Source: Sulfurimonadaceae bacterium (GTDB taxonomy: Bacteria; Campylobacterota; Campylobacteria; Campylobacterales; Sulfurimonadaceae). From it: a DNA stretch of 16,621 nucleotides. The DNA is taken from the NCBI GenBank assembly GCA_041548245.1, contig JBFESZ010000042.1, positions 1-16,621 on the forward strand. Reading direction: 5' to 3'. This document shows positions 386-10,589 of this stretch, in pieces. Positions within the stretch are counted from its first letter, which is position 1. Every line of letters begins with the position of its first letter. The notes under the pieces are model-generated. The model had not been told where the DNA came from. It did not search any database and saw only the letters and a program-made list of their open reading frames with translations. Both the position numbers and the translations under genes were made by a program.

Positions 386-1011
386 CAGTATGTTATCCCC
401 CAAACAGAGATTTTCAATTCACTGTCAACAGTTTGAGTCGCGAATAGGTCGAGATTATGAATGTCGACGACCAAGAAGCTCTGCTCAAGCGAATTAATAA
501 AGTTCATTGTTCTATGAAAGTTTCCTGTTACCTTGACACCAATATCAAGAACATGGCCAAAAGTTTTTTTGTCATCTGAGAACTGATTAGACAAATAGGT
601 GAGCTGTACACCATGTTTTTTCGCATTCTCAGAAATTGAATCAATAAACTGACCCCAGGCCTGTTCATCATAATACAAGCTAGATATCTGCTCTATTTTA
701 TATTTGATGTATTCAGACTGATCTTTCAGAGTGACAAAATCTTGTTTTAATTTTATCGTTTGAGCCTTCAAAGATGCAATTTTACTTTCAGGATTCCATT
801 TAAGATAGTTGCTATGATCAGTGATCTTCTTTTGGATCTCAACTACCTCTTTTTGTGTCTTCTTAAATCCAAGTTCGGCACTATCCCAAAGGAACAGGTA
901 CGAAGCAGCGATAAAAGCAGCTGCCACCATGACATAGGTCATATATATTTCTTGCTGTTTTTTTTCTGCGAATGACTTGTCTATATCGCCTAAAATATCT
1001 TCTAAACTCAT
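385..1011 (-). CDS. pilO: PilO/GspM/MshJ-like type IV pilus alignment-complex protein
   Basis: 208 aa with a single N-terminal TM (IYMTYVMVAAAFIAASYLFLW) and a coiled coil. The C-terminal ferredoxin-like domain has 'FIDSISENAKKHGVQL' and 'VTGNFHRTMNFINSLEQSFLVVDIHNL', matching the PilO 'G.Y..+..F+..+E' pattern. Confidence 0.8.
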   Translation of the reverse strand: MSLEDILGDIDKSFAEKKQQEIYMTYVMVAAAFIAASYLFLWDSAELGFKKTQKEVVEIQKKITDHSNYLKWNPESKIASLKAQTIKLKQDFVTLKDQSEYIKYKIEQISSLYYDEQAWGQFIDSISENAKKHGVQLTYLSNQFSDDKKTFGHVLDIGVKVTGNFHRTMNFINSLEQSFLVVDIHNLDLFATQTVDSELKISVWGITY

Positions 1012-2543
1012 TTTAGCACCACCTTCAATACACTAGAGTATATTTTCTTTTCTTTGTCAAACTCGATTTTTTCGATGGTGAATCTGTACTTTTCAGCTTG
1101 TGTTTTCGTATACCATTCAATCAAATCAGTTATCCTTTTATCTTTACTTGACAAAAGATGCAATTCAAATTTCTTCTCTTTTGTTTTAGTATCTTCTGAA
1201 TAGTGCAGGTCCTTAAGTTTGACACTGTATTTGTTTAGGTCCTTTGTGAGATCAGAGATTCGTTTTGCCTTCATTGGATAGTTAACCTTGACATCATGTA
1301 TTTGTGTCAAGACATTCTTTTTCTCTTCCAAGGCTTTTATTTCATTGTCAACAAGTTTTTTGACCTTATTGACTTCAGCCGTATGGTGATTGATTTTGCT
1401 CTCTCTGTCTTTTCTTTTAATACTGAGTTCATTGAGCTCAGAAGTCAGTGCAGCTTTTTTAACAGACTCAATACCATCCAAGGTCCAATATACACCAGGA
1501 TAAATTAGCGCAACAACGGCAGCAGCAGCAGCTGTTAAGATTAATTGACCACTTGGGCGTTTTGCAAATGCAGGAGGGCGTGGAAAACGAGTGAAGTTAC
1601 AGTCATATCTGTCTTCTGCTTCTAACTGTGCCGTAAGGTGCATCAGTAAATGAAGTTGATCGATATACCACTCTTCAGTTTCAAAGCCATAGTTGAAATC
1701 AAAGTCACTTGAATCTAATCCGAGGTATGTTTGAGAATATTCATCCATACCAACAATGGCACCAACCTCAGAGCCGATATAGACTTTGTTGATCCTTTCC
1801 AGTTCAAAAGCACGTTTTGAATAGGTCATGACATCGTTAATATGTAAGAAAACCTCTCCGAAGAGTTTGATTAGAAACTGCTGGTTCTCGCTTTCACTGC
1901 CACGTAGTCCTTCTTCGGATAATAACTTTATGAATTCAGAAAGCTCTATCTGTTCGCCTAAAAGTTCGCAGTATCTTTCATGCATCTGTGTGAATGAATA
2001 TTTTAAAGACTTGGTGTAGAGGAATTCTCTGTCATCATAGAGTGTTAAGAAAGCATCATCCGATTGAAAATAGATAAAACAGTGTGTGCCACTATCTTCA
2101 ATAATCTCTTTTTTATAGAGACTTCTTAGTAAAAGAGGGGCCGGTATAATCTGATCAATATACTTGATCTGTTCTGTCACACCTGTAAATGCTTCTTCTA
2201 TGCTTAAGGGATCGACTACAAATACGTGATAGTTTTTGTTTCCCTCTTTGATTTCATCAGCAGATTCAACAAAGTTGATCTGATATTCAATAGCCATATC
2301 AAGACCAAGTTCTTCATAAATCTGACTTTCAATTGCATCAGCTATGTCATCTTCAGGAATATTTTGACTTACGGCTATTTGCGTCGTAATAAAATCCTGT
2401 GTCTTGAGATATGAGATAGCATACTGGTCTTTTAAATATTGAGGTTTCTCAGCAACTTTAATCTGAGTGGTCGTACCTGTATAATAAGTGTTATTATAAG
2501 GATTGGCAGATATTGTACTGGAGAAGGCTTGCTTCTGTTTCAT
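1008..2543 (-). CDS. PilM-PilN fusion (GspL/MshI-like) inner-membrane assembly protein
   Basis: 511 aa. An acidic cytoplasmic N-terminal region of about 325 aa has PilM/actin-like features ('IPEDDIADAIESQIYEELGLD..EYQINF', 'CFIYFQSDDAFLTLY..EFLYTKSL', 'INKVYIG'). This is followed by 'NFTRFPRP', one TM (LILTAAAAAVVALIYPGVYW), a coiled coil and a PilN-like periplasmic domain. The gene lies directly upstream of pilO with a 4-nt overlap. Confidence 0.65.
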   Translation of the reverse strand: MKQKQAFSSTISANPYNNTYYTGTTTQIKVAEKPQYLKDQYAISYLKTQDFITTQIAVSQNIPEDDIADAIESQIYEELGLDMAIEYQINFVESADEIKEGNKNYHVFVVDPLSIEEAFTGVTEQIKYIDQIIPAPLLLRSLYKKEIIEDSGTHCFIYFQSDDAFLTLYDDREFLYTKSLKYSFTQMHERYCELLGEQIELSEFIKLLSEEGLRGSESENQQFLIKLFGEVFLHINDVMTYSKRAFELERINKVYIGSEVGAIVGMDEYSQTYLGLDSSDFDFNYGFETEEWYIDQLHLLMHLTAQLEAEDRYDCNFTRFPRPPAFAKRPSGQLILTAAAAAVVALIYPGVYWTLDGIESVKKAALTSELNELSIKRKDRESKINHHTAEVNKVKKLVDNEIKALEEKKNVLTQIHDVKVNYPMKAKRISDLTKDLNKYSVKLKDLHYSEDTKTKEKKFELHLLSSKDKRITDLIEWYTKTQAEKYRFTIEKIEFDKEKKIYSSVLKVVLK

Positions 2544-3841
2544 TCGTTTATCCTAGCTACATAATTTAAAATCACCATGCCACAAAAAGCATCTTGTTTA
2601 TAAAACTCAGCTCTGAAGCGCGTCTGTTCACGATCAAGTGAAAAACGTTTTATTAATGATGACTCTGCAATTTTCATGCCCAATTCATTTCTGTACCGTG
2701 GGTCAGTAAAACCAATGACGTTCAACCGATAACCCTCTGGTGCATTAAAAACTATATCGGACACAATGTTGACTTCTGAAGGTAAATCGATGGATTTTAC
2801 TTTTCCATCGATAATAGCTTCAAAGGGACCTTCACACTTTTCAATTGGAAAGTGTGTCTTGCTCAAACGTGAAATCCGATTGTGCCCAACATACAAATCA
2901 ATAAACCCATTATCTTCTTTCGCCTCTCCTAGGGGATGGCTAAAGGATAACTCGTTCTTATTTGATTGTAGCGGAATAAAACTTAAATTTTTTCTTAAGT
3001 CATCCAAATTTAATGATATATTGTCATTTATTACTATATTTCCGTTATTTTTTGTAATTTTTTGTATGTTTTCCGAGTTGAGTTCAAAGTCACGTTGGTA
3101 GTCTATTCCCATTATCTGCATAAATGCTTCAATAGCACGTAGTTGATAATAGATCTTTTGATCCGTTGTTTTTAATTCTTTACTTGTTTCGATTGCGAAA
3201 GCAGCTTTGTTGTTGTTAATTGCATAATAGGTAAGAGAGTGCTGCATCTCATTCTTTTTCTTTTTTGTTTGCGTGTTACGGACATTGAAACTATGGTGGT
3301 TCTGCAACAGGTGCTGATTCAGTTTTTTACTCACTTTTTCTGCAATACAACCAAGGTCTTTATAACTGTTGTTGTTGTCAAGTGTAAGCTGGTCTATGAC
3401 ACATGTCTGACCCCATGCACCTGGATTAAAAATAGTGTTCTGATACTCTTGACGAAAAAAACCATGTCCGTCATGCAGGTTTAAAATGATGTCAACCTGT
3501 GGGTCTGTGATCAGTGTTTTGACTTCATTGATAATGCCGAGATCAGGGTCATCTTGCGATATCTTGGAGAATTTTCGATTTAAGTCACCGTTGATACTTC
3601 GTTTATATTGTAGGATACTCTCTTTATTGGTATTGGGAGTAACCCATAGATTCCCCGTCTGTATAGAATAATGTTTGGCAAGTATTGATGCGGCATAGTA
3701 TCCCCCCGGTTCATTTCCGTGAATACCGGCGAAGATTAAAAGCGTTGGCCCTTCTTGCTTTCCTTCAAGCTTATAGAGATCAAACTTTTTGTAGGCATGT
3801 AAAAAGGTCAAGAATATAACAAGGAGTAAAAAGGGTTTCAT
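2540..3841 (-). CDS. M99-family peptidoglycan D,L-carboxypeptidase (Csd4/Pgp1-like)
   Basis: 433 aa with a signal peptide. Zinc-carboxypeptidase motifs GIHGNEPGG, 'GDLNRKF', 'LNLHDG.GF', 'PGAWGQTCVIDQ' and 'AFAIETSK' are present. The C-terminal 'YRLNVIGF...FRAEFYK...FCGM' domains resemble Csd4/Pgp1. Confidence 0.9.
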   Translation of the reverse strand: MKPFLLLVIFLTFLHAYKKFDLYKLEGKQEGPTLLIFAGIHGNEPGGYYAASILAKHYSIQTGNLWVTPNTNKESILQYKRSINGDLNRKFSKISQDDPDLGIINEVKTLITDPQVDIILNLHDGHGFFRQEYQNTIFNPGAWGQTCVIDQLTLDNNNSYKDLGCIAEKVSKKLNQHLLQNHHSFNVRNTQTKKKKNEMQHSLTYYAINNNKAAFAIETSKELKTTDQKIYYQLRAIEAFMQIMGIDYQRDFELNSENIQKITKNNGNIVINDNISLNLDDLRKNLSFIPLQSNKNELSFSHPLGEAKEDNGFIDLYVGHNRISRLSKTHFPIEKCEGPFEAIIDGKVKSIDLPSEVNIVSDIVFNAPEGYRLNVIGFTDPRYRNELGMKIAESSLIKRFSLDREQTRFRAEFYKQDAFCGMVILNYVARINE

Positions 3842-4807
3842 CTATTTCTCGGCTAAAATAGTAAATCTAGAAGCATCCAGTTGAATATACAGCTCTTTTT
3901 CGCCACTAAAATGATAGCTTGCTGATTCATACTCTTCATGGAAACTTATCAAATAGATATTTTTTCTTCCTTGTATAGGATAGGGCAAGATGTTGATATC
4001 ACTAAAATGAATCTGCTTGTATTCATTCTTAGCAAAGACTCTTTTCTTATAGTTTGAAAACTTCTCTTTATCAAGACCGTCTAGACGCTTGAAATCTTTG
4101 TCGTAAAAGTTTAGATAAGCCTCAACATCACTCTCTTTCCATGCTTTTCGCCAGGAATAAAGTTGACTTAATAGAACAGAAAGGGTCTCTTTTTTTACTG
4201 ATGGAAAAGGCTCTGTGTCTATATAGACAAATGATTTTTTAAAGTCAATCTGTTTTTCTATAAATTTTAGATCTTTGTTACCAATAGCTATGCACCCTTT
4301 AGTGTAATCATCTCGTTTTTGATTAAGAGGCAAACCATGGACCCAGATTCCTGAACCATTTTTTCCTCTTATCTTATCAAAAGAGTTAGGATAAGAAGTA
4401 ACGAAGGCAAGCGGGCCGTAAAAAGGGTCTACGTGATCAAGTTTTTGAATGAGCTTATAGATGCCAATAGGTGTTTTAAGATCACCTTCTTTCTGTTTGT
4501 CTCCATCTACTTTTCCTATAAAGGCGGAAAAGTCATTGCTAAGAACAAATGAGTTATTACTGTCTTTGGTGTATAACTTCAAAGAAGTTTTATCTTTATT
4601 GCATGCCAATAGATGATTGATTCCCTCTAAATAGCCAAAACGTGTATCGATGTTTTCAAGTTTACTTTCCCAATAACGTTTAGATGCAAGTTCATTATCA
4701 AAAACTTTTTCAACAGCCTGTGTCCCTTCCTTCCGGTAGAGGTTTAGAAGTTCATCATTGGCATAAACAAAAGTTAGTAGCAGTATATGGATAAGAAAAT
4801 AACGCAT
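3842..4807 (-). CDS. YkuD-fold peptidoglycan L,D-carboxypeptidase (Csd6/Pgp2-like) with C-terminal NTF2-like domain
   Basis: 321 aa with a signal peptide. It has 'GDKQKEGDLKTPIGIY', 'YGPLAFVTSYPN' and the catalytic 'GSGIWVHG...TKGCIA' His/Cys motif. The C-terminal 'W.KAW..SD..AYLNFY' segment is NTF2-like. It follows era, as H. pylori csd6 does. Confidence 0.9.
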   Translation of the reverse strand: MRYFLIHILLLTFVYANDELLNLYRKEGTQAVEKVFDNELASKRYWESKLENIDTRFGYLEGINHLLACNKDKTSLKLYTKDSNNSFVLSNDFSAFIGKVDGDKQKEGDLKTPIGIYKLIQKLDHVDPFYGPLAFVTSYPNSFDKIRGKNGSGIWVHGLPLNQKRDDYTKGCIAIGNKDLKFIEKQIDFKKSFVYIDTEPFPSVKKETLSVLLSQLYSWRKAWKESDVEAYLNFYDKDFKRLDGLDKEKFSNYKKRVFAKNEYKQIHFSDINILPYPIQGRKNIYLISFHEEYESASYHFSGEKELYIQLDASRFTILAEK

Positions 4808-7084: not shown

Positions 7085-7620
7085 TAGTGTTCCAAGGATA
7101 GAAGTTTGATATTATTGTTGGTATAAATACACAGTTCTGAGGCAATCTGTAGAGACTCTTTTACCAAAGCCTCTTCATCCATCTGTGCATGACGTTTAAG
7201 GGCACGCGCCGCTGAAATAGCAAAATTACCGCCACTTCCAATCGATGCAATTTCACCATCTTCAGGTTCAACAACGTCTCCGTTACCGGTTAAAATATAG
7301 ATGTGCTCGCGGTTTAATACAATCATCATTGCTTCAAGACGGCGTAATACCTTATCTTTTCTCCATGCTTTGGAAAAATCGATAACAGCTTTGATAAGAT
7401 CGCCTTTACGTTCACCTAAAAAACCTTCAAACATATCAAAAAGATTAAAGGCATCTGCAGTGGAACCGGCAAACCCTGCAAGGATCTCTCCTTTGTATAG
7501 GGTTCGAATCTTGGTTGCATTGTTCTTTAAGACAGCATCACCAAAAGTGACTTGTCCATCTCCGCCGATCACGGCTTTGTTTTTACCCTTATAGGCGAGT
7601 ATGGTAGTTGCATCAAACAT
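7084..7620 (-). CDS. hslV: ATP-dependent protease peptidase subunit HslV
   Basis: N-terminal 'ATTIL', 'GDGQVT', '[10 protein letters not shown]' and 'IGSGG'. Its stop overlaps the hslU start (TAATG). Confidence 0.98.
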
Positions 7621-7633
7621 CTAGAGCCTTCTA

Positions 7634-8080
7634 TTATTCACTAACAATATCGATCTTCATCATCGCATGTAGTCCATGACCAAGTTTAAGATCGATCTCG
7701 TATTCACCAGGTTCTTTCATTGAGAGTTTGTGCACTATGTGTTTTTTGTCAATAAGAATATTGTGTTGTTCTTCAACAGCATGAGCAATTTCATCTTTAG
7801 TCACAGAACCGAATAGATGACCGGTTTCACCTACTTTTTTCTTGATAATTGTTGTCAATGTACTGAGTTGTTCTTTGATGGTTTTTAGATGAGCCAGTTC
7901 AGCTGCTTCATTTTCAGCTTTTTTCTTCTCTTCGGCTCTATGCTGGTTGATTACAGCGTTAGTTGCTGCTTTTGCAAAGCCTTTCCCAATCAAAAAGTTC
8001 TGACCATAACCGTCTTTTACTTCTTTAATTTCGCCCGCTTTGCCGAGGCCTTTGACATCTTTTGTTAATAATACTTTCAT
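7634..8080 (-). CDS. rplI: 50S ribosomal protein L9
   Basis: MKVLLTKDVKGLGKAGEIKEVKDGYGQNFLI and 'LFGSVT'. The second ATG (8080) is preferred over 8086 for SD spacing (AAAGAG) and the canonical N-terminus. Confidence 0.97.
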   Translation of the reverse strand: MKVLLTKDVKGLGKAGEIKEVKDGYGQNFLIGKGFAKAATNAVINQHRAEEKKKAENEAAELAHLKTIKEQLSTLTTIIKKKVGETGHLFGSVTKDEIAHAVEEQHNILIDKKHIVHKLSMKEPGEYEIDLKLGHGLHAMMKIDIVSE

Positions 8081-8114
8081 CTGCATTCTCTTTACTATAG
8101 TTAATAGGTAAACG

Positions 8115-8123
8115 ATTTTAGCA
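8115..8123 (-). promoter_or_regulatory. Extended -10 sigma70 promoter for the rplI operon
   Basis: Minus strand reads TGCTAAAAT (TGn-TAAAAT), about 35 nt upstream of the rplI ATG; typical Campylobacterota RpoD promoter. Confidence 0.7.
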
Positions 8124-8154
8124 GATTTGCTCTTAGATTACACCTAAAGGTTGC

Positions 8155-8883
8155 TTAGCGTACAACTTCTCCGTGATATCCGGAGATTCCATGTGCAAGA
8201 TTGATGACGTTTTTAAATTCCATATCTGAGAGAACGCGTTGGCAATGAGCACTTCGGCTTCCGACATGACAATAGACGACAATACTTTTGTTCTTATCCA
8301 GTTTAGCCTCATCTAGTGAAGCGAAGAAGCTGGTTGTTGGTACAAGTGCATTCGTCCCTTTAATATGACCCATACGATGCTCCATCCACTCTCTTACGTC
8401 GATGAGCTCAAAGTCAACCATACCTAAATCACGTGCTTCGATTAAAGAGATAAGTTCGTCTGAATCTATATCACTTTGAGAGAGCAGGGCTTCACACTCT
8501 GCTGTTGTAAGTCCACGTGAGTGTTCATGCGTGACGGCTTCCAATTCATCCTTTTGTGCCTTGGCCGCTGCATATTCCGGTGTACAAAAGATCTGGCAGT
8601 GACAAACCCCGTCATTTGGTATCTCATGCTCTATAGCAGGCTTACATGGACAGATGCGGTCTTCTTCTTTGTTACCTGTAACAAAGAAACAGGGACAATA
8701 ACGCTTGTCATAGATGAGCTTGTTACGTGTTAAGCCCATTTGAATACCTTCGTTGATAGCTGCGTCAGGATTATAGGCAAAACCAAACTGCTGAACAACT
8801 TTATCGGTGAATTTAACTGTTTTTTGTAGCTCTGCTTTAAATTCTGCTGATTCAGGATCGATTTTTTTCATTTCTGTGCTCAT
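8155..8883 (-). CDS. Ferredoxin:thioredoxin reductase catalytic-subunit-like domain fused to a rhodanese domain
   Basis: 242 aa. The N-domain has C63-P-C65, C78-P-C80 and C94-H-C96, the FTR [4Fe-4S]/disulfide signature, preceded by 'GL..NK..Y..RY'. The C-domain has 'LIDVRE..E...GHIKG' and 'IVVYC205HVGSRS', with 'NL..GI..Y' as in rhodaneses. SD AAAAGG. Confidence 0.88.
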   Translation of the reverse strand: MSTEMKKIDPESAEFKAELQKTVKFTDKVVQQFGFAYNPDAAINEGIQMGLTRNKLIYDKRYCPCFFVTGNKEEDRICPCKPAIEHEIPNDGVCHCQIFCTPEYAAAKAQKDELEAVTHEHSRGLTTAECEALLSQSDIDSDELISLIEARDLGMVDFELIDVREWMEHRMGHIKGTNALVPTTSFFASLDEAKLDKNKSIVVYCHVGSRSAHCQRVLSDMEFKNVINLAHGISGYHGEVVR

Positions 8884-8956
8884 GGAGAAAGACCTTTTGA
8901 TTATTTATTTTAAAATAGTACTTATTACTGGTTGAAAAGAAGTTATAAGTAAAGCA

Positions 8957-8984
8957 TAAGGGCAGCAATATTTAGGTGCCCTTA
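8957..8984 (-). terminator. Stem-loop downstream of argG, probable intrinsic terminator
   Basis: Perfect 8-bp inverted repeat TAAGGGCA-N12-TGCCCTTA about 25 nt after the argG stop. On the minus strand it is followed by only an imperfect U-rich tail (TGCTTTACTT). Confidence 0.55.
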
Positions 8985-9007
8985 AGATATGTGTCAGTGT
9001 AAGCAGT

Positions 9008-10243
9008 CTATTTGTTTCGTGCTTTACCTGCAATGATAAAACGAAGTGCATTAAGTTTGATAAAACCTTCTGCGTCTTTTTGGTTGTATACTTCATCTTC
9101 TTCAAAAGTCGAGTACTCTTCATTGAAAAGTGAGTCAACTGATTGACGCCCGACAACGATGACATTACCTTTATATAGTTTGAGACGGACAACACCGTTG
9201 ACAAACTCTTGAGATTTGTTAATAGAAGCTTGAAGCATCTCACGCTCAGGTGAGAACCAGAACCCATTATAGATGAGTTTGGCATAACGAGGCATCATTT
9301 CGTCTTTCAGGTGAGCCGCTTCTCTATCAAGGGTAATCGATTCGATAGCACGGTGTGCCTTGAGCATGATAGTTCCGCCCGGAGTTTCGTAACATCCGCG
9401 TGCTTTCATACCGACAAAACGGTTCTCAACGATATCAATACGCCCTATACCGTGTTTATTTCCAAGCTCATTAAGTGCCTTGAGCATTGTTGCCGGTGAA
9501 AGTTCTTCGCCATTGAGGGTAACCGGATCTCCATGGGCGTAACCGATTTCAATATATTCAGCTTCATCCGGTGCATTTTCAGGAGAGTTGGTCCATAACC
9601 ACATAGCATCTTCCGGCTCTGCATAAGGGTCCTCCAGGTGAAGACCTTCGTATGAGATATGTAGAAGGTTCGCATCCATTGAGTAAGGACTCGCCTTAGG
9701 ATTACCGTTTTCATCGAGGTGTTTCTTGTCAATAGCTATGCCATGTTCTTTAGCATAGGCAAGCAGTTTTTCTCTAGAGTTCAGATCCCACTCTCTCCAT
9801 GGAGCAATAATAGTCAATGTAGAATCTTGGCCAAGGTAGCCCATCTCAAAACGGACCTGATCATTACCTTTTCCTGTTGCTCCGTGAGCTACGCCATCAG
9901 CACCGGTAATTTTGGCAATTTCTGCCTGACGCTTTGCGATCAGTGGCCGTGCGATAGAAGTTCCTAAAAGATATTCACCTTCATAAATAGCATTGGCTCT
10001 AAACATAGGGAAAACAAAGTCTTTTACAAACTCTTCTCTAAGGTCATCAATAAAGATATTTTCAGGTTTAATGCCAAGTTCCAGTGCTTTTGCACGTGCA
10101 GGTTCAAGTTCTTCACCCTGCCCAAGATCAGCAGTAAAAGTAACAACCTCACACTTGTATTCATCTTGTAGCCATTTTAAAATTACACTTGTGTCTAGAC
10201 CGCCTGAATAGGCTAAAACAACTTTTTTTACTTCTTTTTTCAT
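9008..10243 (-). CDS. argG: Argininosuccinate synthase
   Basis: '[12 protein letters not shown]', '[10 protein letters not shown]', '[13 protein letters not shown]', 'YSMDANLLH' and '[10 protein letters not shown]'. Confidence 0.99.
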
Positions 10244-10276
10244 GAAATCCCTTTAGAGAGAGTAATTAATAGCGCG

Positions 10277-10284
10277 ATTCTACC
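10277..10284 (-). promoter_or_regulatory. Sigma70 -10 element for argG
   Basis: Minus strand GGTAGAAT with upstream T-rich tracts, about 33 nt before the ATG; SD AAAGGG. Confidence 0.55.
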
Positions 10285-10334
10285 TGAATTAAGATGATAA
10301 ATAGTTGAAAAAATGAAGGAGATGATTGAAAAGC

Positions 10335-10589
10335 CTAATGGCTCTGATCAAATGAAGTCTTGGCAGTGGAAGTTGTTTGCAAAAACTCTTTTTGTTTTTT
10401 TATCTTTAGTAAACTGGCTGCTGCGTGATCTTTTTTGAGCTTTAAAAGTTTATATGCCTCTTGCATTAGATGGGCAGCTTCTTGCATCTGTTCTAACGAG
10501 TTAAATTGAGGAAGTTGCTGAATGAGATTGTCAATTTTGTTTTCATCTTCTTCAATGATGGCAATTTTAAGGTTTTTAATCCATTGCAA
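10335..10589 (-). CDS. Small helical protein downstream of fliS; FliT-like flagellar chaperone candidate
   Basis: 84 aa with a TTG start overlapping the fliS 3' end; all-helical composition ('WIKNLKIAIIEEDENKI'). It occupies the fliT position in flaG-fliD-fliS operons. Confidence 0.6.
   Translation of the reverse strand: MQWIKNLKIAIIEEDENKIDNLIQQLPQFNSLEQMQEAAHLMQEAYKLLKLKKDHAAASLLKIKKQKEFLQTTSTAKTSFDQSH

Follow-up and report, generated by a model that had tools for sequence, protein, structure and literature searches.

The window analysed here is the whole 16,621-nt stretch of contig JBFESZ010000042.1 from a Sulfurimonadaceae bacterium (GCA_041548245.1), and its subject is a complete coding sequence (8155-8883, minus strand; ATG start, 242 aa) in which the catalytic domain of a ferredoxin:thioredoxin reductase (FTR) is fused to a rhodanese domain. 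The gene was taken from the list of open reading frames (ORFs) and their translations, and Pfam places both domains on the one ORF, FeThRed_B first and Rhodanese second. FeThRed_B (PF02943) covers residues 18-118 (8530-8832, minus strand) with an E-value of 1.8e-32 and 112 bits against a cut-off of 22, spans profile positions 1-105 of 106, and was recovered with the same coordinates in the search of the host genome. The rhodanese domain (PF00581; residues 147-237, 8173-8445, minus strand) scores 53.8 bits against a cut-off of 22.2 (E 2.8e-14) and was also recovered by the genome search and by Foldseek.

A preliminary description of this DNA had reported a complete FTR cysteine set with its histidine, a His-containing linker and an intact rhodanese loop, and all three were found where it had placed them. 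On the minus strand, the FTR half carries C63-P-C65 (8689-8697), C78-P-C80 (8644-8652) and C94-H95-C96 (8596-8604), the last with the FTR-type histidine. These motifs align column for column with the plant and Synechocystis structures 7bzk, 2pvg and 1dj7, from which the second CPC is predicted to provide cluster ligands; we take C63 to be a further cluster ligand and C65 the exposed redox-active cysteine. Every such position of the fusion protein is Cys rather than Sec. The linker motif H119-E-H-S-R-G-L125 (8509-8529, minus strand; consensus HxHSRGL in an alignment of 72 fusions) contains most of the previously noted THEHSRG (residues 118-124), and the active-site loop of the rhodanese reads C205-H-V-G-S-R210 (8254-8271, minus strand). 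This is a six-residue CX4R loop of the sulfurtransferase type; six versus seven residues in the rhodanese loop is a marker of activity class. All 12 NCBIfam matches of the protein (12/12) lie under the curated whole-protein cut-offs, including the FtrB double-selenoprotein (69.7 vs 160), the MoeZ-type NF005902 (48.4 vs 647), PspE/GlpE (31.9 vs 102 and 20.2 vs 102) and TrhO, so that the fusion has no named NCBIfam equivalog. The loop between the two CPC motifs (8650-8690, residues 66-77) is about six residues shorter in the window protein and its nearest relatives, reading 'TGNKEEDR' against 'GETxEExKxADNR' in most other fusions.

Conservation was assessed in the same 72 fusions, which are 44-92% identical to the window protein. 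C63, C65, C78, C80, C94, H95, C96, C205 and R210 are invariant (72/72), and C100, G208 and S209 are kept in 71 of the 72. The retention of C205 had been set beforehand as a check, and no fusion in the alignment lacks it. Both modules are thus intact and strongly constrained in the fusions. The three 'extra' cysteines of the preliminary description are present in the window protein but differ in standing, as C130 (60/72) and C214 (59/72) are variable, whereas C100 is highly conserved but not specific to the fusion, since stand-alone FTR catalytic subunit (FTRc) proteins, the paralogues of the fusion's FTR domain, also carry it. In the linker, H119 is kept in 66 of the 72 fusions, H121 in 68, S122 in 66, R123 in 64, G124 in 68 and L125 in 67; the divergent fusions P0122, P0124, P0125 and P0127 and the fusion of family f5 lack HxHSRGL. 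The two histidines, serine and arginine of this motif suggest an anion or metal site.

Relatives of the fusion are numerous within the Campylobacterota. A protein search returned 1616 clusters at E <= 1e-5 among 1824 candidates, and the best 120 of the 1616 all contain both Pfam domains, with Sulfurimonas, Sulfuricurvum, Nitrosophilus and Campylobacterales metagenome-assembled genomes among the named relatives. After clustering at 50% identity, only about eight representatives are fusions or fusion fragments, and two of these clusters have named members from Sulfurospirillum and uncultured Sulfurovum. The ESM Atlas holds eight clusters with both domains, in each of which Campylobacterota is the commonest phylum. 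A scan of species-representative genomes gave 558 relatives; 78 of the best 80 bear Campylobacterota-type names, and the remaining two are labelled 'Pseudomonadota bacterium' and 'bacterium'. No fusion from another phylum was seen among the relatives found, although no search was aimed at other phyla. Public databases already show this architecture in their domain-based annotation, where relatives are labelled 'sulfurtransferase', 'FTR catalytic domain-containing protein' or 'FTR catalytic subunit/rhodanese-related sulfurtransferase'.

In a sample of 301 genomes of the phylum, FeThRed_B occurs in 82 and the fusion, counted as a near-full-length match, in 69. Every sampled genome has it in families f1 (23/23, in addition to the host genome itself), f7 (15/15) and f9 (2/2), which are free-living families. 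It is also found in f4 (10/12), f12 (3/4), f5 (5/7), f11 (7/11), f8 (2/6) and f6 (1/3), and is absent from the single genomes of f10, f13 and f14 (0/1 each) and from the two largest families, f2 (0/90) and f3 (0/124). Judging by the family sizes and the named relatives, f2 and f3 would be the host-associated Helicobacteraceae and Campylobacteraceae. In genus g2, the fusion is the sole FTR-domain protein in all 13 genomes with a single match. The fusion is a genuine gene that free-living Campylobacterota associated with sulfur have strongly conserved. FTR-like proteins of a third kind (215-225 aa, with CPC...CCPC/LCPC...CHC; L120:3697-4374, plus strand, and L121:3235-3882, minus strand) have a C-terminal region of about 110 aa that matches no Pfam family; they occur in four sampled genomes (G254, G263, G075 and G165) and are the sole FTR-domain proteins in G075 and G165. 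In genome G043 the fusion gene is frameshifted into a 66-aa N-terminal and a 175-aa C-terminal piece (L142:679-879 and 866-1393, plus strand), either a pseudogene or an assembly error, and the stand-alone FTRc upstream of it is intact.

The two modules are also found side by side as separate genes. All four genomes of genus g54 (family f4) encode a separate FTRc and, 70-100 nt downstream of it and on the same strand, a rhodanese (FTRc and rhodanese, respectively, at L141:392-760 and 830-1195, plus strand; L143:1572-1916 and 1127-1471, L144:1583-1927 and 1189-1644, and L145:1278-1625 and 861-1205, minus strand). These rhodaneses (114-151 aa) belong to the same subfamily as the window domain, to which they are 41-47% identical, and carry a CRTG(S/H)RS loop; three of the four genomes encode the fusion as well. 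The pairs are a natural split version of the fusion and lend independent support to a functional pair. In the family f5 genome G007, an FTRc (115 aa), the fusion (240 aa), two short ORFs of 97 and 107 aa that match no Pfam family, a stand-alone rhodanese (111 aa) and a DUF7897 gene (581 aa) lie head to tail (L119:6838-10632, plus strand), and in genome G274 a second rhodanese follows the fusion gene. FTRc and rhodanese are therefore coupled at the gene level in three ways, as fusion, as split pairs and as the f5 cluster. DUF7897 (PF25448) was considered as a partner and rejected: it was not found in the host genome, and it is present in 219 of the 301 phylum genomes, including all 124 of f3 and none of the 23 of f1, the window's family. 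The DUF7897 gene of the f5 cluster (L119:8887-10632) appears to represent an uncharacterised and nearly phylum-specific family of about 600 aa with a zinc-peptidase-like HEFGH motif.

Outside these arrangements, the surroundings of the fusion vary. When 33 directly adjacent genes from 17 other loci were scanned (L030 was left out), none of the 25 commonest families listed occurred more than three times, which indicates that the fusion gene is not part of a conserved operon. A tree of the FTR domain (57 rows, 112 columns) gathers 17 of the 18 stand-alone forms, together with the four split-pair forms, in a supported clade (98/93) that is nested among the fusions, and the label 'fusion' takes four changes on it, at least two of them forced by starred branches; with only 112 columns, the tree is unable to order these events. 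No residue near the redox centre was seen by eye to separate the fusion from the stand-alone forms.

An AlphaFold2 model of the window protein, built from the 72-row alignment, has a mean predicted local distance difference test (pLDDT) score of 93 and a predicted template modelling (pTM) score of 0.63. Its only internal stretch of lower confidence is residues 110-130 (block means of pLDDT 78-81), and the model thus depicts two confidently predicted domains on a linker without a fixed orientation. Such a flexible tether would fit a mobile substrate-carrier domain. A complex prediction of FTR residues 1-114 with a 4Fe-4S cluster against rhodanese residues 126-242, for which controls are absent, gave ipSAE values of 0.01/0.01 against a mark of 0.32 and is evidence neither way. 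Foldseek found no solved chain that spans both domains. The rhodanese half matched GlpE (1gmx), Sud (1qxn) and Alr3790 with target-normalised TM-scores of up to 0.86, the rhodanese domains of Npsr and coenzyme A-disulfide reductase (CoADR-RHD; 3nta, 4ocg, 3icr) and of persulfide-dioxygenase fusions, and also Uba4 (6yub), and the FTR half matched FDR, FTR-thioredoxin complexes and 7pwe.

Among solved chains, the FTR domain is most similar in sequence to 4tpu (E 2.5e-9), followed by 7pwe (E 1.7e-7) and the plant and cyanobacterial FTRc proteins (E 1e-4 to 3e-3). The closest relative, FDR of Methanosarcina acetivorans (4TPU, aligned to residues 18-108), is like the fusion a single polypeptide that dispenses with a variable subunit and joins an FTR-like [4Fe-4S]/disulfide module to a redox partner domain. 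Its partner is a rubredoxin, which is an electron-input domain, whereas the rhodanese of the window protein would rather be an acceptor. The second-best relative, by its entry title a glutaredoxin/ferredoxin-disulfide-reductase fusion of Desulfotalea psychrophila (7PWE), also has an FTR-like module joined to a presumed thiol/disulfide acceptor, although this is an N-terminal glutaredoxin and not a C-terminal rhodanese. The preliminary description had listed plant/cyanobacterial FTR and methanogen FDR as the characterised relatives; both belong on the list, from which the solved 7PWE fusion had been left off. Both FDR and 7PWE carry C-Y-C in place of the FTR-type C-H-C, and since these are the nearest solved relatives, the window protein combines an FDR-like overall sequence with an FTR-type histidine. 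The plant and cyanobacterial FTRc proteins (1DJ7, 2PU9, 7BZK) share with the fusion the Pfam family and the CPC/CPC/CHC motifs including the histidine, but they are more weakly similar, form a heterodimer with a variable subunit that was not found in the host of the fusion, and act on free thioredoxin without a fused domain. On sequence grounds, the protein is a putative FTR-like, FDR-type reductase with rhodanese as its fused partner. FTR-like modules joined to a redox partner are known elsewhere as well, from 4tpu (rubredoxin) and 7pwe (glutaredoxin), which speaks for the persulfide-reductase reading set out below.

A functional analogue of the activity proposed below is found in the Npsr/CoADR-RHD enzymes of Shewanella loihica (3NTA), Bacillus anthracis (3ICR) and Archaeoglobus fulgidus. 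According to the published account, Npsr consists of a CoA-disulfide reductase with a C-terminal rhodanese, its first sulfur acceptor is a surface cysteine of this rhodanese, and it reduces persulfides and polysulfide to H2S with NADH (PMC7969121). Like the fusion, these enzymes combine a disulfide-reductase module with a C-terminal rhodanese of about 100 aa, and by Foldseek the rhodanese domains are structurally alike. However, their reductase is a FAD- and CoA-containing pyridine-nucleotide disulfide oxidoreductase that uses NAD(P)H, whereas the fusion has an FTR-type module for which ferredoxin is the expected donor, and as there is no homology outside the rhodanese domain, the fusion is not a member of the Npsr family. 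GlpE and PspE share with it the single-domain rhodanese fold and the six-residue active-site loop, as reflected in the Foldseek match to GlpE, but they are free-standing and rely on the NADPH-thioredoxin system; sulfide release from the GlpE persulfide is thioredoxin-dependent.

The host genome (2.16 Mb, 165 contigs, 95.95% complete) encodes six matches over the Pfam cut-off to the N-terminal domain of 2-oxoacid:ferredoxin oxidoreductases, ATP-citrate lyase and SoxZ. It is thus a ferredoxin-rich, Sox-containing genome and offers the setting that a ferredoxin-driven reductase needs. It also encodes a canonical trxA-trxB pair and three more thioredoxins (four thioredoxins in total), an ATP sulfurylase and a sulfite-reductase-type protein, and seven rhodanese matches were obtained in the genome profile search. 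FeThRed_A (PF02941), the variable subunit, was not found in this 95.95%-complete genome, and a positive control in Synechococcus was matched; because of this absence, the fusion is not considered a classical heterodimeric FTR. A second FTRc of the host is a stand-alone protein of 113 aa with the full CPC/CPC/CHC set (L001:1501-1842, minus strand, corresponding to G000 contig C10:18627-18926) and is 56% identical to the FTR domain of the fusion over 112 aa (tblastn). It sits between ppnK/recN and aspS; ppnK was discarded as a candidate partner, as this adjacency is not kept in six other stand-alone loci.

FTR chemistry uses two one-electron inputs from ferredoxin to cleave an S-S bond via a cluster-bound intermediate. 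Because the Cys-S-SH of a rhodanese is itself an S-S bond, Npsr offers a precedent and FTR fusions occur elsewhere, a persulfide reductase is rated the best explanation of the architecture, and by analogy we give about an even chance to the fusion being a single-polypeptide ferredoxin-dependent persulfide (sulfane-sulfur) reductase. Its cluster, electron donor, substrate, product and physiological role are what we infer here. The sulfane sulfur of thiosulfate, of polysulfide or of a persulfide, whether low-molecular-weight or protein, would be loaded onto rhodanese Cys205 to give Cys205-S-SH, and the FTR-type module would take up two single electrons from reduced ferredoxin at a [4Fe-4S] cluster held by C63, C78, C80 and C94 beside the C65-C96 disulfide, together with His95. 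The exposed thiolate of Cys65 would then attack the persulfide on the flexibly tethered rhodanese, and the second electron would resolve a cluster-stabilised one-electron intermediate, releasing H2S and regenerating both cysteines. In Campylobacterota that are rich in ferredoxin and oxidise sulfur or are exposed to it, such an enzyme might hold down the level of cytoplasmic sulfane sulfur or provide sulfide without the use of NAD(P)H. The preliminary description had proposed a reductase of this kind, and the idea is partly supported in that its anatomy is confirmed, with an FTR centre and Cys205/Arg210 that are invariant in 72/72 fusions and with split pairs in 4/4 genomes of g54.

Several observations weigh against a dedicated persulfide reductase. 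Thioredoxin systems reduce persulfides, and with those of the host in place such an enzyme is not obviously needed; the ATP sulfurylase and the sulfite-reductase-type protein likewise leave no obvious gap in assimilatory sulfide supply. The AlphaFold2 model (pTM 0.63) contains no confident docking of Cys205 on Cys65, the HxHSRGL linker motif has no role in the proposed mechanism, and no sulfur-metabolism gene is a conserved neighbour among the 33 genes from 17 loci. Moreover, closely similar FTR domains occur without a rhodanese, which indicates that the reductase module also acts on further substrates. Of the 82 FTRc-positive genomes, ten carry stand-alone FTRc alone (counting the frameshifted G043 but not G269, which has a split pair), and two further ones have a different FTR-like protein in place of the fusion. 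Finally, a literature search found no paper that describes or tests an FTR-rhodanese fusion, in line with the earlier remark that no biochemical characterisation of this architecture was known.

The invariant residues would fit equally well with a biosynthetic or trafficking sulfurtransferase that is serviced by the FTR module and yields a thiolated acceptor instead of free sulfide, a reading we consider rather unlikely. The acceptor might be a thiocarboxylate carrier or belong to a tRNA or cofactor pathway, and the FTR module would resolve a disulfide or acyl-disulfide between Cys205 and the acceptor or re-reduce an oxidised (sulfenic or disulfide) Cys205. Uba4 is among the Foldseek matches, and the top NCBIfam matches on the rhodanese side are MoeZ/MoeB-type C-terminal rhodaneses (NF005902, E 6e-13, residues 116-237 including the linker), but MoeZ-type scores are far under their cut-offs (48.4 vs 647 bits) and no E1-like, MoaD/ThiS-like or tRNA-modification gene recurs among the 33 immediate neighbours. 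In addition, families without the fusion still make molybdenum cofactor and thiolated tRNA, and its absence from f2 and f3 (0/214 together) thus argues against a place in a universal biosynthetic route. A different view of the same protein takes the FTR half as an ordinary ferredoxin:thioredoxin (or glutaredoxin) reductase and the rhodanese as an accessory domain, either a stand-in for the variable subunit or a sulfide- or persulfide-sensing gate. The stand-alone FTRc forms manage without such a domain, and an invariant Cys205/Arg210 loop (72/72) would be needless in it; the split pairs keep FTRc with the same rhodanese subfamily, no thioredoxin gene recurs among the 33 neighbours, and trxA-trxB is already present in the host. 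We therefore regard this as distinctly unlikely, even though the full FTR motif set with its histidine (tyrosine in FDR), the 56% identity to the stand-alone FTRc of the host, the lack of a detected variable subunit alongside four encoded thioredoxins, and the many genomes in which the fusion is the sole FTR-domain protein (e.g. 13/13 in g2) all speak for it.

A rhodanese cysteine can also bear other substrates, and proteins of this fold act on selenium and arsenate in other systems. The fusion might accordingly deliver selenium as a perselenide, reduce arsenate or use thiosulfate as an electron sink, and weak NCBIfam matches to the FtrB double-selenoprotein (69.7 bits) and to a rhodanese-related selenoprotein (26.3 bits) point in this direction. 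Yet these scores are all below cut-off, the protein has Cys rather than Sec throughout, its loop is of the six-residue CX4R type and not of the seven-residue type of phosphatases and arsenate reductases, and no selenium or arsenic gene is found among the 33 immediate neighbours in related loci, making such a substrate highly improbable.

If the fusion is a persulfide reductase, it may moreover represent a new activity, a ferredoxin:persulfide oxidoreductase that would link the low-potential ferredoxin pool of free-living Campylobacterota, chemolithoautotrophs among them, directly to the turnover of sulfane sulfur in the cytoplasm without NAD(P)H, thioredoxin or flavins, a proposal that we make tentatively and hold at somewhat less than an even chance. 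In that case, the [4Fe-4S]/disulfide centre of an FTR would cleave the S-S bond of a persulfide on a tethered rhodanese, and with its near-universal presence in Sulfurimonadaceae and several sister families the enzyme would belong, so far unrecognised, to the core of sulfur homeostasis in the bacteria that predominate in sulfidic redoxclines and at vents. To our knowledge, few FTR-like [4Fe-4S] disulfide reductases have been characterised, namely plant-type FTR and two methanogen enzymes. The FTR-like family is reportedly classified in work by Balsera (2013, Planta) and Prakash (2018, JBC; 2024, Biochemistry), and the rhodanese-fused group may already be listed in a numbered 'FTR-like family' classification, which is known to us from a reference title. 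With a rhodanese-fused branch present almost throughout Sulfurimonas, Sulfuricurvum, Sulfurospirillum and their kin, the one-to-two-electron chemistry of these enzymes would extend from disulfides to persulfides, and the fusion would be the ferredoxin-linked counterpart of the NADH enzyme Npsr. In addition, a gene that is conserved but as yet unexplained would gain a name, in bacteria that govern the oxidation of sulfide in oxygen-minimum zones, sediments, caves and hydrothermal vents.

Within the window, the fusion gene lies between argG upstream (9008-10243) and rplI downstream (7634-8086), all on the minus strand, and rplI opens a run of rplI-hslV-hslU-era that continues on this strand from 7634 down to 4815; fliS, fliD and flaG lie farther upstream of the fusion gene. 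The order argG-fusion-rplI-hslV is confined to the window's family (L018, L020, L032), and L031 keeps rplI-hslV. An RNA fold of the 127-nt spacer (8884-9010, z = -2.45) contains a hairpin 3' of the argG stop codon (8957-8984, minus strand) with the stem AAGGGCA/UGCCCUU and a U-rich stretch after it. This candidate argG terminator would possibly leave the fusion gene with its own transcript, and the stand-alone unit between the argG hairpin and rplI that the preliminary description had noted is confirmed in its flanks and its hairpin. A consensus terminator scan of 7500-10500 called no terminator, the hairpin included, and a promoter scan of the same interval gave two promoter-like sites, neither of them 5' of the fusion gene. 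This yield is below that of the shuffles. No RNA dataset was among those listed for positions 7634-10243; the five runs listed were all metagenomes, apparently of DNA type, one of them with 0.88 of the words. No FTR variable subunit, thioredoxin or ferredoxin is encoded by the 19 larger window ORFs scanned, and neither the CxxCxxCxxxC[PG] nor the C[GP]PC motif occurs in its six frames, both of which agree with what had been reported for the window.

Two further features of the window are of minor note. A 126-aa ORF on the minus strand (8905-9285) runs in another frame over the 3' end of argG into the spacer and is almost certainly no gene. Farther downstream (2540-4807, minus strand), a Peptidase_M99 gene for a helical cell-shape carboxypeptidase adjoins a YkuD L,D-transpeptidase/Cds6-C gene; helical Campylobacterota typically have such a pair of cell-shape genes.

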